From a virus (Duplodnaviria > Caudoviricetes): a stretch of 64,000 bases of DNA. Location of the stretch: positions 8,276 through 72,275 of the IMG/VR virus record IMGVR_UViG_3300037466_003369. One strand, given 5' to 3'. Shown here one piece after another: positions 738 to 50,800 of the stretch (positions are counted from its first letter, which is position 1; every line of letters starts with the position of its first letter). A program made the position numbers and the translations under genes. Under the pieces are notes generated by a model. It did not search any database, was not told where the DNA came from, and worked only from the letters and a program-made list of their open reading frames with translations.

Positions 738-902
738 ATGCCGAGCAAGTCTCCCGAGCAGCGGCGTCTGATGGCCGCCGCCGCGCATGATCCGAAGTTC
801 GCGGCCAAGGTCGGCGTGCCGCAGAAGGTGGCCAAGGAGTTCAACCGCGCCGACCAGCACGAGGGCCAGGATCGGAGCTTCCAGAGGATCAAGGCCCTCT
901 GA
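738..902 (+). CDS. Small 54-aa phage protein (MPSKSPEQRRLMAAAAHDPKFAAKVGVPQKVAKEF...)
   Basis: GGGAGA RBS and ATG at 738. TGA overlaps the portal ATG (TGATG). Below the ORF-track cutoff. Confidence 0.8.
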   Translation: MPSKSPEQRRLMAAAAHDPKFAAKVGVPQKVAKEFNRADQHEGQDRSFQRIKAL

Positions 903-3598
903 TGTGGCCCTTCCGGCGGGGGCCGGCGAAGCCGGCCGAACCCGCGAAGGCCGCCGAGCCGGCGCGCCCGGCCAAGCGGCGCATCAGCGACACCGCCATC
1001 GCCCGCGTCATGGAGCGGCGGCCGGGCGGCTTCATGCTGACGCCGCTGAGCGAGACCCCGCGCGTCGAGCGTCCTTTCGAGCCCGCCAAGCCGCTGACCA
1101 AGGACGCCCCGGAGATGGCCTTCGACTCCGGCGTCGAGGACGTCTTCGCGCAGCTCAACTCGGCGACCTACAACTTTGGCGAAGGCATCGGCTTCATGGG
1201 CTACGGCTACTTGGCCGAGCTTGCCCAGCGCCCCGAGTACCGCCGCGGATGCGAGGTCTTGGCGCGGGAGATGACCCGCCGCTGGATCAAGCTGACCTAC
1301 AACGGCGAGGAGGACGACATCGAGCCGGAGGCCGAGGGCGACGAGGAGGACGCCACGCCCGGCGAGGCCGACAAGGACGCCGAGCAACCTGAGCCCGAAG
1401 CGCAGAAGTCCGATGTCGATCCCGAACGGGGTGATCCGCCGGGGATCGGGCACAACAAGCCGCCGCGTCCGGCCCGGAGGGTCAAGCCCAGCGACGAGAA
1501 GCTGAAGCGGATCGAGGCGGAGCTGAAGCGCCTGAAGGTGCGCGAGGCGTTCCGTCGCGTGGCCGAACTGGACGGCGTCTTCGGCCGTGGCCACATCTAC
1601 CTGGACACCGGCGACACCGAAAAGCCGGATGAGCTGAAGACCCCGCTGACGGTCAGCAAGGTCAAGATCGGCCGGCGTAAGAAGCTGAAGCGCCTCGTCG
1701 TCGTCGAGCCGACCTGGACCTATCCGCAGAACTACGACAGTCGCGATCCGCTGAAGCCGGAGTTCTTCGAGCCGCAGAACTGGCTCGTGATGCAGAAGTC
1801 GGTCCACGCGAGCCGACTGCTGACCTTCGTGGGCCGCGAGGTCCCGGACATGTTGAAGCCGGCCTACTCGTTCGGCGGCCTCAGCCTGATCCAGATGGCC
1901 AAGCCGTACGTCGACAACTGGCTGCGCACCCGCCAGTCGGTCAGCGACATCCTGCACGCCTTCACCGTCTGGGTGGTGAAGACAGACCTCAACGACATCC
2001 TGAACGGCAGCGACGACGGCGATCAGGTCGTCCGGCGGGCCGAGCTGTTCAACCGGGTCCGCGACAACCGTGGCCTGATGATGGTCGACAAGGAGAGCGA
2101 GGACTTCGCCAACGTCGCGGCGCCGCTCGCCGGGCTCGATCATCTGCAGGCCCAGGCCCAGGAGCAGATGGCCAGCGTCTTCGCCATCCCGCTGGTGGTC
2201 CTGCTCGGCATCACGCCCTCCGGCCTGAACGCCTCCAGCGACGGCGAGATCAGGGTCTTCTACGACTTCATCCACGCCTTCCAGGAGCACCTGTTCGGCC
2301 ACGCGCTGCACATCATCCTGAAGATCGTGCAGCTCTCGCTGTTCGGGGAGATCGACGAGGACATCGGCTTCGAGTTCCTGCCCCTTTGGCAGCCGACCGA
2401 GACCGATCAGGCGACGATCCGCAAGACCAACGCCGACATCGACAAGGCCTACATCGACGGGGGCGTGCTCGATCCCTCCGAGGTCCGCGAGAAGATCGCC
2501 AACGACAAGGACAGCCCCTACCAGAACATCGACCCCGACGCCGTGCCGGAGCCGCCGCAACCGCCGGGCGGCGATCCCTTCGGCGCCGATCCGGATGGCG
2601 AGGGCGGCTCAGAGGACGATCCGGACAGTGGCTTCCCGCCCTCGTCCGGCGGCGGCGAGCGCCGGCCCGCGGTCCCCAAGGCCGGCGGCAACCCCAAGCC
2701 GCCCGAGCGCCGTCCGGCCGGCGGCGATCCCAAGCCCCCGCGGGCCCAGGACGCCGCCTTCAGGGAACAGGACCATCCCCGTGGCCAGCCGGGCAACGCC
2801 GGCCAGTTCGGCCCCGGTGGTGGAAAGTCTAAGACCGAGGCTCCGAAGCCGAAGTCCAAGGAGAAGGAAGCGGCCAAGGCGGCGCAGGAGCCCGCCAGCC
2901 CCAGGGAGCGTCCGCCGTTCTCCGAGGAGGAGCTGTCCGGGCTGCCGCACGTCGATGAGATCGATCAGCCGACCACGTCCTGGGAGGAGCTGAAGACCAA
3001 GGGCGAGGAGGGCCGCGCCGCCTTCGTCGAGGCGCTCTCCGTCGTGGCTGACAAGCTGAGGCTGCGGACCGACGTGACGCTGCCCGAGCAGTTGACGCCC
3101 GAGGACCTGGAGAGCGGCGACAACTTCCTGTTCGTGGCGCCGAACAAGTCCGAGGCCCGAGCGCGGGCCAAGATCGAGAGCGACTATGGCGGCAACTGGT
3201 CAAAGCTGCGCGACATGGTCCGCGCCTCGATCACCGTGTCGTCGATGGATGAGCTGCGGGCGGCTGTGATCGCCGCCGAGGACGCGGGCCTAGCCCTGGC
3301 GGCCAAGCCCAAGGACCGCTTCACCAAGCCGACGCCCGAGGGCTACCGCGATCTCAACACCCTTGTGCGGCTGCCCAACGGCATGGTGGCCGAGCTGCAG
3401 TTCCACCTGACGCCGATCATCGCGGCCAAGAACGAGGGCCACGTCCACTACGAGGCGCAGCAGCGCCTGACCCGCAAGAACGGCATGGAGGAGCCGGACG
3501 ACACGTGGTCGCTTGAGGACATCGAGCGGTTCACCCAGGCGCGCGAGCGGCAGCGTGAGCTGTACGGCGCGGCCTGGGAGAAGGCGACGAAGGCCTAG
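902..3598 (+). CDS. Portal protein (DUF1073-type) fused through a low-complexity linker to a C-terminal RelA/SpoT-like nucleotidyltransferase domain
   Basis: Position after terL; portal motifs HASRLLTF, GITPSGLNASSDGEIRVFYD, FEFLPLWQ. The C-terminal ~160 aa has KSxxRAxxK-DY, RDMVR, KDRFxKPxxxGYRDL, ELQFH and GHVHYE. Confidence 0.9.
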   Translation: MWPFRRGPAKPAEPAKAAEPARPAKRRISDTAIARVMERRPGGFMLTPLSETPRVERPFEPAKPLTKDAPEMAFDSGVEDVFAQLNSATYNFGEGIGFMGYGYLAELAQRPEYRRGCEVLAREMTRRWIKLTYNGEEDDIEPEAEGDEEDATPGEADKDAEQPEPEAQKSDVDPERGDPPGIGHNKPPRPARRVKPSDEKLKRIEAELKRLKVREAFRRVAELDGVFGRGHIYLDTGDTEKPDELKTPLTVSKVKIGRRKKLKRLVVVEPTWTYPQNYDSRDPLKPEFFEPQNWLVMQKSVHASRLLTFVGREVPDMLKPAYSFGGLSLIQMAKPYVDNWLRTRQSVSDILHAFTVWVVKTDLNDILNGSDDGDQVVRRAELFNRVRDNRGLMMVDKESEDFANVAAPLAGLDHLQAQAQEQMASVFAIPLVVLLGITPSGLNASSDGEIRVFYDFIHAFQEHLFGHALHIILKIVQLSLFGEIDEDIGFEFLPLWQPTETDQATIRKTNADIDKAYIDGGVLDPSEVREKIANDKDSPYQNIDPDAVPEPPQPPGGDPFGADPDGEGGSEDDPDSGFPPSSGGGERRPAVPKAGGNPKPPERRPAGGDPKPPRAQDAAFREQDHPRGQPGNAGQFGPGGGKSKTEAPKPKSKEKEAAKAAQEPASPRERPPFSEEELSGLPHVDEIDQPTTSWEELKTKGEEGRAAFVEALSVVADKLRLRTDVTLPEQLTPEDLESGDNFLFVAPNKSEARARAKIESDYGGNWSKLRDMVRASITVSSMDELRAAVIAAEDAGLALAAKPKDRFTKPTPEGYRDLNTLVRLPNGMVAELQFHLTPIIAAKNEGHVHYEAQQRLTRKNGMEEPDDTWSLEDIERFTQARERQRELYGAAWEKATKA

Positions 3599-3783
3599 TC
3601 GCCGCCCATCATCCTCTGGGCCTCGGCCTCGTCGATGATGTCGCCCCACTCGACGCCCTTGGGGACGTCGCCGGTGTAGGCCACGAACTTCTTCTCCGTG
3701 GGGGACCAGACCTCGCTGGGCCACGCGCGGGACCTCCCGCGGAACAGCGCCCCCTCGTTCTCGATGTAGATGAATTTGGCCAT
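3595..3783 (-). CDS. 62-aa protein convergent with the portal; candidate immunity/antitoxin
   Basis: GGAG RBS before ATG 3783. Stop overlaps the portal stop in a CTAG palindrome. Own promoter at 3862-3890. Confidence 0.75.
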   Translation of the reverse strand: MAKFIYIENEGALFRGRSRAWPSEVWSPTEKKFVAYTGDVPKGVEWGDIIDEAEAQRMMGGD

Positions 3784-3861
3784 CGTCTTCTCCGGTTTGG
3801 GACCTCCCTTGTGATGTGCGGGTGAGCGCGGCGCAACGCGCATTCGCGGGCCCACGCTCCT

Positions 3862-3890
3862 CATATAGGCGACCTTGAAACAAAAAGGAA
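3862..3890 (-). promoter_or_regulatory. Phage early-type sigma70-like promoter, TTCCTT-N17-TATATG
   Basis: CACTTCCTTTTTGTTTCAAGGTCGCCTATATG closely matches the promoter at 50516-50544 (CACTTCCTTTTTCTTTCAGGAGCGCCTATCTT). Confidence 0.75.
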
Positions 3891-3896
3891 GTGGAA

Positions 3897-3983
3897 ATGT
3901 TCCACACCCTCTGGATCATGGTCGCCGGCTGCATCGTCGGCTTCCAGGCCTTCGGATACCTGACCCTGTTCCGGGCGGCCTGA
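3897..3983 (+). CDS. Possible 28-aa membrane peptide (MFHTLWIMVAGCIVGFQAFGYLTLFRAA)
   Basis: Hydrophobic ORF that fills the gap before MuF. Confidence 0.4.
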   Translation: MFHTLWIMVAGCIVGFQAFGYLTLFRAA

Positions 3984-3987
3984 CCGG

Positions 3988-4788
3988 GTGTCCATCCACC
4001 ATCGCCAGCGACAGGTGATCCTGCCGCGGGTGGTCCCGAACGCGGGACTGCAGGCCTACTACCGCAAGCGCCTCGACCGGCTGATCGAGGCCATGCACGA
4101 CTCGGTCGCCTACTGGGTGGCGCAGGCCTATCGCGCCAATCCGCCGGAGATCGCCCAGGACGAGAGCCCGGCCATGGCCATGCGGCGGCTGATGCGCAAG
4201 CTGGCCAGTCGCTGGAACCGCGAGTTCGACAAGCTGGCCAGGAAGCTCTCGCCCGAGTTCGTGCGCCGCAACGGCCGGATGAGCGACACCCAGTTCATGG
4301 AGCACCTCAAGGCGGCCGGCTTCACCGTGGAATTCTCCGTCAGCCGGCAGGTCAACGACGTGATGCAGGCGGCCATCGGCGAGAACGTGGCGCTCATCAA
4401 GTCGATCCCGCAGCAGTACCTGACCCAGGTGGAGGGCATGGTCCTGCGCTCGGTGCAGGCCGGACGCGACCTCTCCACCCTGTCGAAGGACCTGCAGCAC
4501 CAGTACGGCGTCACGCGCCGCCGCGCGGCCTTCATTGCCAGGGATCAGAACAACAAGACCACCTCCGCGATCTATCGCGCTCGACAGCTCGAACTCGATA
4601 TCGACGAGGCCATCTGGCACCACAGCCACGCAGGCAAGACGCCGAGGCCTAGCCACGTCGCCAACAACGGCAAGACCTACAAGGTCTCCGAGGGCTGGTA
4701 CGACCCGGACCTGAAGAAGCGTATCTGGCCCGGCACGGAACCGAACTGCAGATGTACAGCCAAGTCGATCATTCGAGGGTTCATGTGA
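3988..4788 (+). CDS. Head morphogenesis protein MuF (SPP1 gp7 family)
   Basis: RAAFIARDQNNK, WHHSHAGKTPRPSH and PGTEPNCRC motifs; follows the portal. Confidence 0.9.
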   Translation: MSIHHRQRQVILPRVVPNAGLQAYYRKRLDRLIEAMHDSVAYWVAQAYRANPPEIAQDESPAMAMRRLMRKLASRWNREFDKLARKLSPEFVRRNGRMSDTQFMEHLKAAGFTVEFSVSRQVNDVMQAAIGENVALIKSIPQQYLTQVEGMVLRSVQAGRDLSTLSKDLQHQYGVTRRRAAFIARDQNNKTTSAIYRARQLELDIDEAIWHHSHAGKTPRPSHVANNGKTYKVSEGWYDPDLKKRIWPGTEPNCRCTAKSIIRGFM

Positions 4789-4958
4789 TGCCGGACGAGA
4801 GAGACGCGCCGATGTTCCTTTATCGCGGCCCGAAGGCGGACGACGACTGGACGCCGCCGACCTTCGGCATGGGCGTGGTCATCGGGGTGCTCGGCGGCCT
4901 CGTCGTCGCCGCCCTGATCAGCGCCGTCGTCACGCTGCCCTGGACCTACCTTGGCTGA
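4788..4958 (+). CDS. Small membrane protein
   Basis: ATG overlaps the MuF stop; one long hydrophobic segment. Confidence 0.6.
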
Positions 4959-6801
4959 CGGCGCCGGCGTCATGCTGCAGGCGCCGGGCAACCGGCTCCT
5001 CGTCCTGCGGCGTAGTCAGGAGAGCGATCATCCGGGGACCTACTGCTTCCCCGGCGGCGGCGTGGAGGAGGGCGAGACCTACGAGGACGCCGCGCGTCGC
5101 GAGCTGCACGAGGAGACCGGCTTCGACTACCAGGGGCCACTCGCGCAGGTCGACGACCGCGATGGCTTCGTCACCTTCCGCGCCGAGCTGCCCGAGGAAT
5201 TTGATCCCGAGCTGAACGACGAGCACACCGAGGCCCGCTGGATCGAGCCTGGCGAGCACGACGCGGAGCCGCTGCATCCCGGCGTCAGGGCCACCCTCAG
5301 TGAGATGGGCTTCGCCATGGATCAATCCATCCGCAAGCGCGCGCTCGCCTTCGACCGCGCCACGGTTCGCTCCTTCACCGTGGACGGCCGGCTGCAGGTC
5401 GAGCTGAACCCGATCTCCAAGGCCAACGTCTGCCCCTACTACGGCGAGGAGATTCCGGACCACGAGAAGCTCGGTCTGGACCCTAAGCGCGTCTACATGC
5501 TGCTGCGCGATCCGGAGGAACTGGCCAAGGCGGCGGAGACCTTCAATGGCGTCCCGCTGCTGCTGATCCACAAGCCCTCCACCGCGGACGAGCACCCGCG
5601 CGAGCTGACCATCGGGACCACCGGCACGGACGCCGCCTGGGAGGACCCGTACCTCAAAAACACCCTCGTGGTCTGGGACGCCGAGGGTATCGAGGCCATC
5701 GAATCCGACGAGCAGAAAGAGCTGTCGTCCGGCTACCGCTACCGCGCCGACATGACCCCCGGCGTGTTCAACGGCGAGAACTACGACGGGGTCATGCGGG
5801 ACATCGTCGGAAACCACGTCGCCCTCGTCGAGGAGGGCCGCGCAGGACCCGACGTTGTCGTTGGCGATTCCAAACCAAGGAACCTCATGATGAAGATCAA
5901 GACTGCCGCGCTGCCGTCTCGGAAGGCCCTGCTTGTCCAGGGCGCCGTGGCGGCGGTCCTCGCGCCGATGATCGCCCAGGATGCCAAGCTCATCGACCTG
6001 GGCGGGGTGTTCAAGGGCGTCAACCGGAAGAACTACGCCGCCCAGCGGGACAACATCGTCTCGCGCCTGAAGCTGGCCACCGACAAGCGTCTGGCCAAGG
6101 ACGCCGACTTGGAGGACGTGGTCGCCGTGATCGACGCCCTGAAGGGCGTCAACGGCGGCGACGCCGACGAGGACGACGTCACCATCGATGCCGATCTCGT
6201 GCCCGGAGCCGCCGACCCGGCCGATCCGGAGAAGACCAATCCGGGCGTCTCCGGCGAGGACGAGGAGGAGGGCGGCCACGAGGCCTTCATGGCCAAGCTG
6301 AAGGCCAAGCTGGACGACGCCACCTACGCCAAGGTGGTCTCGGCCATGTCCCCGTCCGCCGCCCCCGCGCAGGGCGCGACCGACGAGGAGAAAGACAAGA
6401 ACGAGGAGCCCGGCGCCGAGGACGAGGAGGGACCCGAGAAGAAGCCCGAATTCGTCTCCAAGGGCGCGATGGACAAGGCCATCAACGCGGCCTCCGCCAA
6501 GGCGGTCAAGGACACCATCACGCGCCTCGCCGCCGTCCGCGAGGCGGAGAACATCTGTCGCCCGCACATCGGCGAGCTGGCCATCGCCATGGACTCCGCG
6601 GAGGCCGTCTACAAGCACACGCTGCAGACGGTCTGCCCCGACCGCGACCTCACCGGCATCCACCCCAGCGCCTTCCGGGCCATGGTGGAGATGCTCCCCA
6701 CGGGCTCCGAGCCCAAGACCCCGCGGCTCGCCCAGGACGCCAAGAAGGCCAAGGCCTTCGAAGAGCGCTACCCCGGCGCCGACCGCATCAAGAGCCTTTA
6801 A
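4951..6801 (+). CDS. NUDIX hydrolase fused to DUF2213 (putative prohead protease/scaffold)
   Basis: Complete Nudix box [25 protein letters not shown]2213 motifs [17 protein letters not shown] and [12 protein letters not shown], then an acidic scaffold-like tail. Confidence 0.88.
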
Positions 6802-7751: not shown

Positions 7752-8840
7752 ATGAACTACCACGACGCACAGACCCAGTGGACGGACGACGCTCCGCTGC
7801 TGGCCGCCAAGGGCGTGGTGCTCCCCGACGCCAAGGCGTACAAGCCCGACGAGTTCGGCGCCGACTACGGCTTCGCGATGGACGCCCAGCCGGCCCTGGT
7901 CACCCAGTCCAACGCCGGCATCCCGGCGTTCCTCACCACCATGGTCGATCCGGCGGTCATCCGGATTCTGCTGGCCCCGAACAAGGCCGCGACCATCTTC
8001 GGCGAGGTCAAGAAGGGTTCCTGGCTGGACGAGACGGCGATGTTCCCCATCGTCGAGCGCACCGGCGAGGTGAGCACCTACGGCGACTTCAACGAGAACG
8101 GCCACGCCGGGGTCAACACCAACTGGCCGCAGCGCCAGAGCTACCTGTTCCAGGTGGTGAAGGAGTGGGGCGAGCGCGAGCTTGAACGCGCCGGCCTCGC
8201 CCGCATCAACTGGGCCTCGGAGATCGACGAGGCGGCGGCGATCCAGCTCATGAAGTACTCCAACCTGACGTATTTCTTCGGCGTCGCCGGGTTGCAGAAC
8301 TACGGGCTGCTGAACGACCCGAACCTGTCGGCGTCGCTGACCCCCGCCACGAAGACCTACGGTGGCGTCAAGTGGATCAACAACGGCGTCGTCGTGGCCA
8401 CGGCCAACGAGGTCTACAACGACATCCAGTCGATCTTCCTGCAGCTCGTCAACCAGTCTGGCGGCCTGATCGACCAGGAGTCGCAGATGACCCTGGCCAT
8501 GTCGCCCAGCTCGGCCGTGGCCCTGACCGCGACCAACAGCTTCAACGTCAGCGTCGCCGACCTGCTGAAGAAGAACTTCCCCAACCTGAAGCTGGAGACC
8601 GCGGTCCAGTACGGGGCGCTCTCGGCCACCAACACGCAGGGCGTGGCCGCCGGCAACCTCGTGCAGCTCATCGCCTCCAACGTCGAGGGACAGGACACCG
8701 GCTACTGCGCCTTCAACGAGAAGATGCGCGCCCACCCGGTCATCCGCGCGATGTCCTCCTTCAAGCAGAAGGTCACGTCCGGCACCTGGGGCGCGATCAT
8801 CCGTCAACCGTTCGCCATCGCGTCGATGGTGGGAGTCTGA
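7752..8840 (+). CDS. Major capsid protein (DUF2184 family)
   Basis: AAGGAG RBS. Motifs AMDAQPALVTQSNAGIP, STYGDFNENG, FFGVAGLQNYGLLNDP. Confidence 0.92.
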   Translation: MNYHDAQTQWTDDAPLLAAKGVVLPDAKAYKPDEFGADYGFAMDAQPALVTQSNAGIPAFLTTMVDPAVIRILLAPNKAATIFGEVKKGSWLDETAMFPIVERTGEVSTYGDFNENGHAGVNTNWPQRQSYLFQVVKEWGERELERAGLARINWASEIDEAAAIQLMKYSNLTYFFGVAGLQNYGLLNDPNLSASLTPATKTYGGVKWINNGVVVATANEVYNDIQSIFLQLVNQSGGLIDQESQMTLAMSPSSAVALTATNSFNVSVADLLKKNFPNLKLETAVQYGALSATNTQGVAAGNLVQLIASNVEGQDTGYCAFNEKMRAHPVIRAMSSFKQKVTSGTWGAIIRQPFAIASMVGV

Positions 8841-49493: not shown

Positions 49494-50326
49494 CAGGCAT
49501 TCGCCTTCTCGACGATCCGCTGTGCGGCGTATCGGGCGGCGTTGTTGAGCTGGCGCTGCCACACACCGACCGAGGGAGCCCATTTGAAGCCATGGCTCTT
49601 CAGTTCCCGGATCATCTCCGGGGCTGGTTTGCCCCGGAACATGATCTGCAGCCGATTGGCCTCGACGTTCTCGTAGACCTCCTCGATCCCTGGCGCCGGG
49701 CTCTCGATGATCTTGGGCTGCGCCTGGGCCTGCTTCTGCAGCAGTTCGATCCGTTGCTTGATGCGCCGGATGTTGGCGCCGTTGTTCGTGATCGCGTAGT
49801 CGGGGAAGCCGATCCGACCGGCGAAATCCGGCTCCAGGAGCTTCTTGACGGCGCCGGCGCTGATGGCCGGTTCATGAGCTTTCAGGGCACAGAGGTAGCG
49901 ATCCCAGGCCTCTCCGGACTGGATGTCCCGGACGCCGTGCTTGTAGAAGGCCTTGACCACCTTGTTCATGGCGACCATGGCCGTCTGCCGGGCCTCCAGC
50001 CTGATCAGCTCCGTCTTGAGCTTGGCGACCGCCTCCGGGTCATCCGAGCTGATCCCGCCCGACCCGACCGCGGCAGCCTTGGCCTCGATCTCCTTGGCAG
50101 CCTTCAGGTCGGCGAAGCCGCTCCGGAAGCCGCCCTCGATCCTGCCCCGATAGTTCCGGTCGCGTTTCTCCGAGTGGTGGCCGATCAGGATCGGCTGGCC
50201 GAAGGGAATGGCCTCGGCCATCTTGTGCGCCCGGTCGACCTTGGCCTGCCCGACCTGCCGGAGCTGCTCGGCCCGCGCCTCCAGGCGCTGGCGCCGGGCT
50301 TCCTGCTTTTGCTCGTAGTGGTTCAC
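49493..50326 (-). CDS. DUF3560-family protein
   Basis: IPFGQPILIGHHSEKRDRNYR, ISSDDPEA, NNGANIRRIKQRI, LKSHGFKWAPS. Confidence 0.88.
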   Translation of the reverse strand: MNHYEQKQEARRQRLEARAEQLRQVGQAKVDRAHKMAEAIPFGQPILIGHHSEKRDRNYRGRIEGGFRSGFADLKAAKEIEAKAAAVGSGGISSDDPEAVAKLKTELIRLEARQTAMVAMNKVVKAFYKHGVRDIQSGEAWDRYLCALKAHEPAISAGAVKKLLEPDFAGRIGFPDYAITNNGANIRRIKQRIELLQKQAQAQPKIIESPAPGIEEVYENVEANRLQIMFRGKPAPEMIRELKSHGFKWAPSVGVWQRQLNNAARYAAQRIVEKANA

Positions 50327-50493
50327 GCCCTCACCTCCTTGATCACGCCATGCTGGTAGTGGAAGGCGACCGAGGCGCTGGCGCTGGCGAGCCAGTAGAC
50401 GGCGAAGCTGTCGCCGGCTTCCGCGGCCTTCCGCATCGCTTCGAGCTGGGCCGTCTTGGCGGCTTGGGCCTTGGCTTTCAGGGTCTTGGCCAT
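50323..50493 (-). CDS. 56-aa hypothetical protein
   Basis: TCGGAAGGAG RBS; first gene after a promoter. Confidence 0.65.
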   Translation of the reverse strand: MAKTLKAKAQAAKTAQLEAMRKAAEAGDSFAVYWLASASASVAFHYQHGVIKEVRA

Positions 50494-50515: not shown

Positions 50516-50544
50516 AAGATAGGCGCTCCTGAAAGAAAAAGGAA
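50516..50544 (-). promoter_or_regulatory. Early promoter TTCCTT-N17-TATCTT
   Basis: CACTTCCTTTTTCTTTCAGGAGCGCCTATCTT followed by GACTCGGAAGGAG. Confidence 0.78.
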
Positions 50545-50725
50545 GTGGCTTTTCACGCTTGAACGCATTTTCTTTTTCAGGCATCGTCTCGGCCATCGGA
50601 AGTGGTCCCTGACCATCACGCTATGCCGCGCTCGACGGTGTGATCGCCCCGCGAGGGGCCTCGAAGAGGCTGGAATCATCGAACCGAGGACCCGCAGTCG
50701 AGGCTCGGCTGCGGGTCTTGCGCAT

Positions 50726-50800
50726 TCGGGGATCGTCCAACGGTAGGACTGCCGGTTTTGGTCCGGTCAATGGCGGGTTCGAATCCTCCTCCCCGAGCCA
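50726..50800 (+). tRNA. tRNA-Gln (anticodon TTG) with encoded CCA
   Basis: Acceptor TCGGGGA/TCCCCGA, D stem GTCC/GGAC, anticodon loop TTTTGGT, T loop TTCGAAT, 75 nt. One C-C mismatch in the T stem. Confidence 0.9.

Follow-up and report, generated by a model that had tools for sequence, protein, structure and literature searches.

A protein of 62 amino acids, encoded on the minus strand against the end of a phage portal gene, is probably the cognate inhibitor (immunity protein or antitoxin) of a Tas1/Apk-like pyrophosphokinase domain which forms the C-terminus of that portal. This reading, which draws on sequence conservation, structural modelling and analogy, is given a probability of roughly 0.75. 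The pair lies in a stretch of 64,000 nucleotides, called the window below, which covers positions 8,276 to 72,275 of the IMG/VR record IMGVR_UViG_3300037466_003369, a virus of the Caudoviricetes; the record is 72,275 bp long and is rated complete by CheckV. In the coordinates of the window the small gene is found at 3595–3783 on the minus strand and the portal gene at 902–3598 on the plus strand. An earlier note, made from the letters of the window, had suggested that the small protein is an antidote to the portal synthetase and is made ahead of it. Genetic linkage and predicted binding now speak for the antidote; its early expression is something we infer.

The small gene, the Rel domain and their linkage

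The small gene is a real gene. It is the sole minus-strand open reading frame (ORF) between the portal and the next plus-strand genes, nearly all of its codons have G or C at the third position, and a GGAG ribosome-binding site (3790–3793, minus strand) is located 6 nt upstream of its ATG. Its stop interlocks with that of the portal in a CTAG at 3595–3598, the portal ending with the TAG at 3596–3598 and the small gene with the complement of 3595–3597. The interlocked stops and the ribosome-binding site had been pointed out in the earlier note and are both read directly from the sequence. The encoded protein (MAKFIYIENEG...) has 48 close homologues with a length of 60–78 amino acids, and a broader profile collected 233 clusters (50% identity, E≤1e-3) from a library of 1.84 billion representatives. 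This conservation rules out a spurious shadow ORF, and the alignment of the homologues sets the start at the ATG of the 62-amino-acid form, which rules out a form of 89 amino acids starting at ATG 3864. The same note had counted two antisense units in the late operon; a second convincing one was not found in the plus-strand block from 1 to 32.6 kb, where the other antisense candidates were judged to be shadow ORFs.

The family of the small protein is characterised by the motif Y-I-E-N-E-G-A-L-F-R-G at the N-terminus and by P-K-x-[IV]-x-W-G further on, with I7, E8, N9, G11, A12, R15, P22, Y36, P41, W46, G47, and A55 being invariant. An AlphaFold2 model with a predicted local distance difference test score (pLDDT) of 88.8 consists of five strands and a C-terminal helix. 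Scans of the small protein against Pfam, PHROGs, and PADLOC gave no match, nor did hmmscan with 33 members of the family, and a comparison of the family profile with PDB sequences yielded only a chance-level match to a complex I subunit. Two proteins from the search of representatives, P0190 (kelch-like) and P0200 (AP2-like), were rejected as relatives, their matches being to low-information repeats. Judged from its sequence, the small protein belongs to a new, unannotated immunity-like family.

The portal protein of 898 amino acids (Pfam PF06381 4e-87, phrog_146) is composed of a Phage_portal_3 body, a Pro/Gly-rich linker, and a Tas1/Apk-like RelA-SpoT (toxSYNTH) domain at its C-terminus (2918–3598, plus strand; residues 673–898). 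The latter, called the Rel domain below, is what the small protein is proposed to act on. Used as a single sequence, these last ~226 residues had Tas1 (6OX6 chain A, E 3e-5) as their best PDB sequence match. A profile of 15 Rel sequences again found Tas1 (6ox6_A, E 5.6e-9), with RelA/Rel enzymes at ~1e-3, and an AlphaFold2 model of the domain (pLDDT 94.7) had Tas1 as its top fold match (6ox6_A, E 4.9e-8); Pfam RelA_SpoT remained below threshold for the domain of the window (E 0.087). All synthetase motifs are invariant in the 15 sequences, these being the lysine helix (K77/K85), the D..R strand (D99-R102), the E-G-Y-R-D G-loop (141–145), E-L-Q (159–161), and H..Y (H175-Y178). Because Tas1 is the best match in sequence as well as in fold and the motifs are invariant, it is plausible that the domain is an active Tas1/Apk-like pyrophosphokinase. 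By analogy it is probably a (pp)pApp synthetase, which would drain ATP. MuF (PF04233) is absent from the toxin protein; the carrier is Phage_portal_3, and MuF is encoded by a separate gene at 3988–4788.

Small gene and Rel domain were found side by side from either starting point. When the search was started from the small protein, a Rel domain was immediately adjacent in 17 of 18 viral or metagenomic loci, and in the reverse search, with the Rel domain as query, an adjacent small-protein homologue was present in all 25 viral loci wherever downstream DNA exists. The co-occurrence of homologues with Rel-like domains, proposed earlier as a check of the antidote idea, thus extends to every viral or metagenomic Rel locus with flanking DNA. 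The Rel-adjacent set spans nine of nine portal fusions, all of them with a convergent small gene, and about 24 stand-alone carrier-Rel genes with a co-oriented one. It also holds a divergent subfamily which the first small-protein profile barely detected and in which the two genes are still adjacent (Rel domain 37–40% and small protein 25–28% identical, motif [YF]-[FY]-E-V-E-G-A-V-F-R).

The two gene arrangements differ in their portals. Fusions of the Rel domain to a PF06381-type portal were found in 12 clusters. In all nine such loci (the window, L028–L032, and L056–L058) the convergent small gene stops 0–3 nt from the portal stop; six of them (the window, L029–L032, and L056) have the CTAG in common, and in L028, L057, and L058 the stops are separate and 1–3 nt apart. 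The co-oriented form occurs in phages of ~90 kb, including the cultured Bordetella phage PHB04. Here a PF04860-type portal (gp035 in PHB04) is followed by a protein of ~480 amino acids made of an undescribed N-domain and the Rel domain (gp034) and then by the small gene (gp033), which overlaps the toxin gene by an ATGA stop/start, and the loci usually end with an HD_4/MESH1-like alarmone hydrolase (gp032). The opposite-strand placement had rightly been called unusual, since the small genes of stand-alone Rel genes are co-oriented and start/stop-overlapped and those of the portal fusions are without exception convergent. The PF06381 and PF04860 portals are non-homologous, yet their Rel domains are ~50% and their small proteins 55–70% identical, so that Rel domain and small gene move as one two-part module.

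A complex of the Rel domain and the small protein was predicted from alignments. This had been another check proposed for the antidote idea, and the controlled model passed it, with the partner placed over the active site. The interaction prediction score from aligned errors (ipSAE) was 0.85, as compared to 0.00 for the best of three controls; 58 of 80 solved complexes reach the mark for such predictions, as do 2 of 110 mismatched pairs. The pLDDT of the partner was at least 86, and the contacts agreed between runs to at least 86%. In the model the small protein sits over the catalytic cleft and contacts the invariant Rel residues Y90, D99, K132, E141, Y143 (the G-loop tyrosine), D145, E159 (the glutamate of E-x-Q), K171, and Y178. 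On its own side the interface is formed by the invariant residues E8, N9, G11, and A12 of the E-N-x-G-A motif together with Y36 and P41. In published work, Tis1-type domains act on toxic small alarmone synthetases (toxSAS) that make (pp)pApp in this way, neutralising them by occluding the acceptor site (PMC11782079).

The mechanism proposed on these grounds is as follows. The C-terminus of the portal, located in the capsid interior, would carry the pyrophosphokinase domain, and the small beta-rich protein would bind across the catalytic cleft and cover both the G-loop tyrosine and the site of the acceptor nucleotide. The enzyme would thereby be blocked while the portal is made in the infected cell, and the toxin domain would be delivered to the next host. 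The module of Rel domain and small gene would have been grafted onto unrelated head carriers. Since the small gene is always convergent in the portal fusions, translational coupling to the toxin is not available there and the small gene would need, and use, an antisense transcription unit of its own. In the window this unit would be monocistronic and stand behind a 30-nt element common to the early-type unit of a DUF3560 gene.

Some further arrangements were noted among the relatives. Three portal proteins (P0060, P0061, and P0064; L031 5001–8093, L058 4001–6664) have an extra PF18823 InPase domain between portal body and Rel domain, and in L001 and L002 InPase is encoded by genes of its own close to the cassette. 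In P0207, a protein of 314 amino acids from the representative library, one ORF comprises the C-terminal half of a Rel domain and, behind it, a domain of the small-protein type. The two may be naturally fused, or the ORF may result from a frameshift or a wrong gene call; a genuine fusion would be a Rosetta-stone link of the two.

Phage genome and expression of the small gene

The window has a G+C content of 66%. The sequencing runs listed as containing this DNA are DNA runs of soil and rhizosphere metagenomes, with no RNA run among them. Its rightward genes, from 1 to ~32.6 kb, encode terminase, portal, MuF, a NUDIX-DUF2213 protein, capsid, and tail, and its leftward genes, from ~33 kb on, include those for ThyX, an SNF2 helicase, DUF932, DUF3560, and a DnaE-type polymerase. 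A tyrosine integrase was searched for in the complete genome and none was found. The phage, being without integrase and having its own DnaE and ThyX, appears to be virulent. Because of the missing tyrosine integrase, protection of the cell against superinfecting relatives, which the earlier note had offered as an alternative task of the small protein, looks less relevant.

The NUDIX domain (4951–5340, plus strand; Pfam NUDIX 5.7e-21, PADLOC PDC-S07 4.9e-13) is the N-terminal part of a gene spanning 4951–6801 on the plus strand, in which it is fused to the head protein DUF2213/Pa193_gp24. The fusion is also present in L028 and is not present in L029–L032, and the PDB matches of the NUDIX domain are generic ones to NudI/MutT. 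By analogy it may be a second, product-degrading antidote which replaces the HD alarmone hydrolase of the relatives.

The 30-nt element occurs twice, at 3865–3894 (copy 1, a candidate promoter or operator of the small gene) and at 50519–50548 (copy 2). The copies agree in 26 of 30 positions, point in the same direction, and are the only two in the 72-kb genome, as compared to 0 expected from shuffles. A recognisable version is found at the same place in L028, the Rel domain of which is 69–70% identical to that of the window. On the minus strand copy 1 reads CCACTTCC-TTTTT-...-CGCCTAT and runs into a -10-like CTATAT, which corresponds to CTATCT at copy 2. Both blocks are at a sensible distance from minus-strand starts, the element lying 82 nt from the ATG of the small gene and 25 nt upstream of the ATG at 50493, respectively. 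Behind copy 2 there is a gene for 56 amino acids (50323–50493, minus strand) and then the DUF3560 gene (49496–50326, minus strand; Pfam 1e-28, tblastn identity of 48–57% to the homologues of the relatives). To the other side, 178 nt away, the only tRNA of the window, a tRNA-Gln (UUG; 50726–50800, plus strand), is situated in the same divergent gap. A consensus scan of both strands found no sigma-70-type promoter and no acceptable -35 at either copy. The shared early promoter that had been suggested for the two sites therefore stands as a shared 30-nt element and falls as a sigma-70 match. The only terminator-like hairpin (3905–3891, minus strand) is not conserved at copy 2, the fold of the 5' leader of the small gene is not unusual (z -0.72), and an Rfam scan gave nothing but the tRNA.

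In six relatives with a portal fusion (L029–L032, L057, and L058) an antisense cassette of 4–13 genes is situated between portal and MuF and has the small gene as its last member; in L057 the cassette is bounded by the next plus-strand gene, MuF being outside the fetched DNA. DUF3560 heads the cassette, or the cassette is close behind it, in L029, L031, and L032, and other cassette genes match the leftward block of the window. In these three loci the cassettes are preceded by canonical TTGnnn-N16/17-TAGATT/TATGTT signals. Since the small gene of the relatives ends an antisense early-type cassette and the DUF3560 gene of the window stands behind copy 2, expression of the small gene is likely to be uncoupled from the late operon. 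Expression before the late operon would be the natural extension of this and is the timing we infer; the element is a putative early minus-strand promoter. In two relatives DUF3560 and MuF are separated by a short divergent region (L029 9747–9816 and L032 10403–10473), in which an inverted repeat ATTGAC-N7-GTCAAT was observed just downstream of a sigma-70-like -10, where it looks like an operator.

A tentative alternative of appreciable weight is that the element serves not the minus strand but the rightward genes, be it as an operator, as a region of translation initiation, or as a promoter at which plus-strand transcription restarts; the small gene would then have a different signal or a different time of expression. 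The two copies point the same way, and each is located in a divergent intergenic region with a plus-strand gene or tRNA to the right, which would make a 28-codon ORF together with MuF the target of copy 1 and the tRNA-Gln at 50.7 kb that of copy 2. The sequence AAGGAAGTGG directly precedes the ATG at 3897, the sigma-70 match is missing on both strands at both copies, and the antisense cassettes of L029, L031, and L032 use a different, canonical signal. At copy 2, however, no start codon follows the Shine-Dalgarno-like part, both copies precede a minus-strand start by a suitable distance, their -10-like block being CTATAT or CTATCT, and copy 2 heads the unit of DUF3560, a gene which the relatives keep in one operon with the small gene.

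The 28-codon ORF (3897–3983, plus strand) would encode a very hydrophobic peptide (MFHTLWIMVAGCIVGF...) and has G or C at nearly all third positions. It begins 2 nt past copy 1, with an AAGGAAG as Shine-Dalgarno-like sequence, just before MuF, and may be a gene for a small membrane peptide; it is not present at the corresponding spot in L028.

It is unlikely, though worth stating, that the convergent arrangement as a whole is an evolved timing device. The antidote would then be made from a host-polymerase promoter together with the early-type genes, before the portal is translated, and antiterminated late transcription, running antisense through the small gene, would afterwards shut the pre-loaded antidote off. 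The CTAG would leave no DNA in which recombination could part toxin from antidote, and copies of the small gene in Alpha- and Betaproteobacteria which stand apart from any Rel domain would be bacterial counter-measures which neutralise the toxin that such phages inject by way of portal or head.

Orphan copies, likeness to Tis1 and other possible functions

Several observations weigh against the small protein being the inhibitor of the Rel domain. The first comes from locus L005 (6191–8159), where an N-terminal carrier of ~225 amino acids bears a Zeta_toxin domain (Pfam 7e-24) in place of the Rel domain. The Zeta gene is followed by a new 62-amino-acid ORF (motif PEERPDLYDDYD, also found in L023) and then by a small-gene copy which was kept after the replacement. 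Since Zeta replaces Rel on the same N-domain, the carrier behaves as a polymorphic-toxin scaffold, and the locus reads, by analogy, as the displaced-immunity pattern of polymorphic toxin loci. The second observation is the occurrence of orphan small-gene copies in five bacterial genomes or metagenome-assembled genomes, all of which lack any Rel domain of this type. The hosts include Caldimonas tepidiphila and a sphingomonadales and an alphaproteobacterial assembly; the copies are found at 8001–8177 in L019, L021, and L022, the one in L022 being located beside tuf/nusG, and that of L020 (7998–8396) consists of two domains fused in tandem. Homologues without a link to RelA-like domains, which had been named in advance as speaking against an antidote, thus exist as a minority, made up of the five orphans and the Zeta locus, and not as the majority. 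These cases weaken a strict dependence on Rel, yet they fit orphan and displaced immunity genes, which are a known feature of polymorphic toxin systems (PMC3482391).

Further points concern the likeness to Tis1. In a fold comparison Tis1 (6ox6_B) ranked third of 48,161 representative PDB chains and covered 56 of the 62 residues, the match being weak (Z 3.8, root mean square deviation 3.9 Å) and tied with Sm/SH3-like barrels. Foldseek found nothing in the PDB at E≤0.001 for the model of the small protein. Pfam PF24154 (Tis1_ImmP) had no match at E≤10 in the genome of the window and those of five relatives, and when the family profile was compared by hhalign with a genuine Tis1, encoded next to a PAAR-Tas1 gene in L055, the probability was 1%. 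A neighbouring Atlas cluster, in which 11% of the members are Tis1_ImmP, is a lead only. Because the Tas1-Tis1 complex (6OX6) has already been solved, the pass of the complex prediction may in part be a memory of that structure, and it is to be read as likeness rather than proof of binding. The identities of Rel domains and small proteins correlate with a Spearman coefficient of 0.47, a value which is expected from linkage alone. By analogy the small protein is best filed as working like Tis1/IapK, in their slot, with membership in their family not demonstrated.

Two other functions were considered for the small protein. As a chaperone or packaging adaptor it would bind the Rel domain for folding, solubility, or escort into the prohead. 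Linkage and interface serve this explanation equally well, head-borne cargo frequently needs assembly factors, and in the published Apk2 systems the hydrolase can give much of the protection (PMC10083569). It is nevertheless improbable, as the predicted contacts are on catalytic and acceptor-site residues and not on a distal surface, and gene order and start/stop coupling in the relatives match toxin-immunity pairs. Still less probable is a function of its own, for example, as a nucleic-acid-binding or regulatory early protein linked to Rel only by a shared mobile cassette: the orphan copies in housekeeping contexts and in genomes without Rel, the copy beside the Zeta toxin, a fold as close to Sm/SH3-like barrels as to Tis1, and weak profile matches to AP2-like and kelch-like repeats would agree with it, but against it stand an adjacency of 100% over ~33 loci with two unrelated carrier types and two orientations, a correspondingly divergent small protein beside the divergent Rel subfamily, the passed complex prediction with controls at 0.00, and the precedent of orphan and displaced immunity genes.

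Comparison with known systems

Literature searches gave no description of portal-fused Rel domains or of the small-protein family. If the small protein is the inhibitor, the theme of head-borne alarmone toxins, which had concerned the MuF proteins of temperate phages, is widened to the portal protein in soil phages that appear to be virulent, and an unannotated immunity-like family is defined, with its conserved motif predicted to lie on the acceptor site of the enzyme. The convergent, stop-sharing clade and the co-oriented, translationally coupled clade form a natural comparison of antidote timing and dosage, which bears on how the antidote is set when the toxin is a structural protein of the virion. 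With its gp034, gp033, and gp032, the cultured Bordetella phage PHB04 is a tractable relative for studying packaging and injection of such domains.

The closest relative by sequence and fold of the enzyme is Tas1 (Apk1) with its partner Tis1 from Pseudomonas aeruginosa (PDB 6OX6; PMC10083569, PMC11782079). In both cases a Tas1-like toxSYNTH domain forms the C-terminus of a delivery protein, an adjacent gene encodes a protein of ~60–77 amino acids made of beta strands and a C-terminal helix, and neutralisation occurs by covering the acceptor site, which is a prediction for the phage pair. The carrier is a phage portal here and a PAAR protein of the type VI secretion system there, the small protein of the phage has no detectable sequence homology to Tis1, and its gene is convergent, whereas that of Tis1 is downstream and co-oriented.

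The Apk2-IapK(BcTis1)-Aph1 MuF polymorphic toxins of temperate phages (PMC10083569, PMC12226406, PMC5576092) share with the present system a head protein as carrier of a (p)ppApp-synthetase-like domain, a small immunity gene which is always present beside a variable alarmone hydrolase, as in the relatives described here, and a carrier that accepts other toxins, here Zeta in L005. The co-oriented relatives, with toxin, small gene, and HD hydrolase, even have the gene order of Apk2-IapK/Tis1-Aph1 (PMC10083569, PMC12226406). In contrast to these systems the carrier is a PF06381 portal or an undescribed N-domain of ~225 amino acids, with MuF as a separate gene, the phage is apparently virulent and without integrase, neither Pfam nor PHROGs has a match for the immunity family, and the small gene of the portal fusions runs convergently, as part of an antisense early-type cassette.

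The type II toxSAS pairs (PhRel-ATphRel of phage Phrann, FaRel-ATfaRel/AT2faRel; bioRxiv 10.1101/575399, PMC11782079) are again composed of a toxin with RelA-SpoT fold and a small adjacent neutraliser, and their start/stop-overlapped bicistron is matched here by the co-oriented relatives only. Their antitoxins are of pZFD or PanA types or are multidomain proteins. They are cytoplasmic toxin-antitoxin or defence modules with co-oriented operons, whereas the toxin described here is fused to a virion protein and its putative antidote is, in the window as in all nine portal fusions, encoded by a convergent gene.

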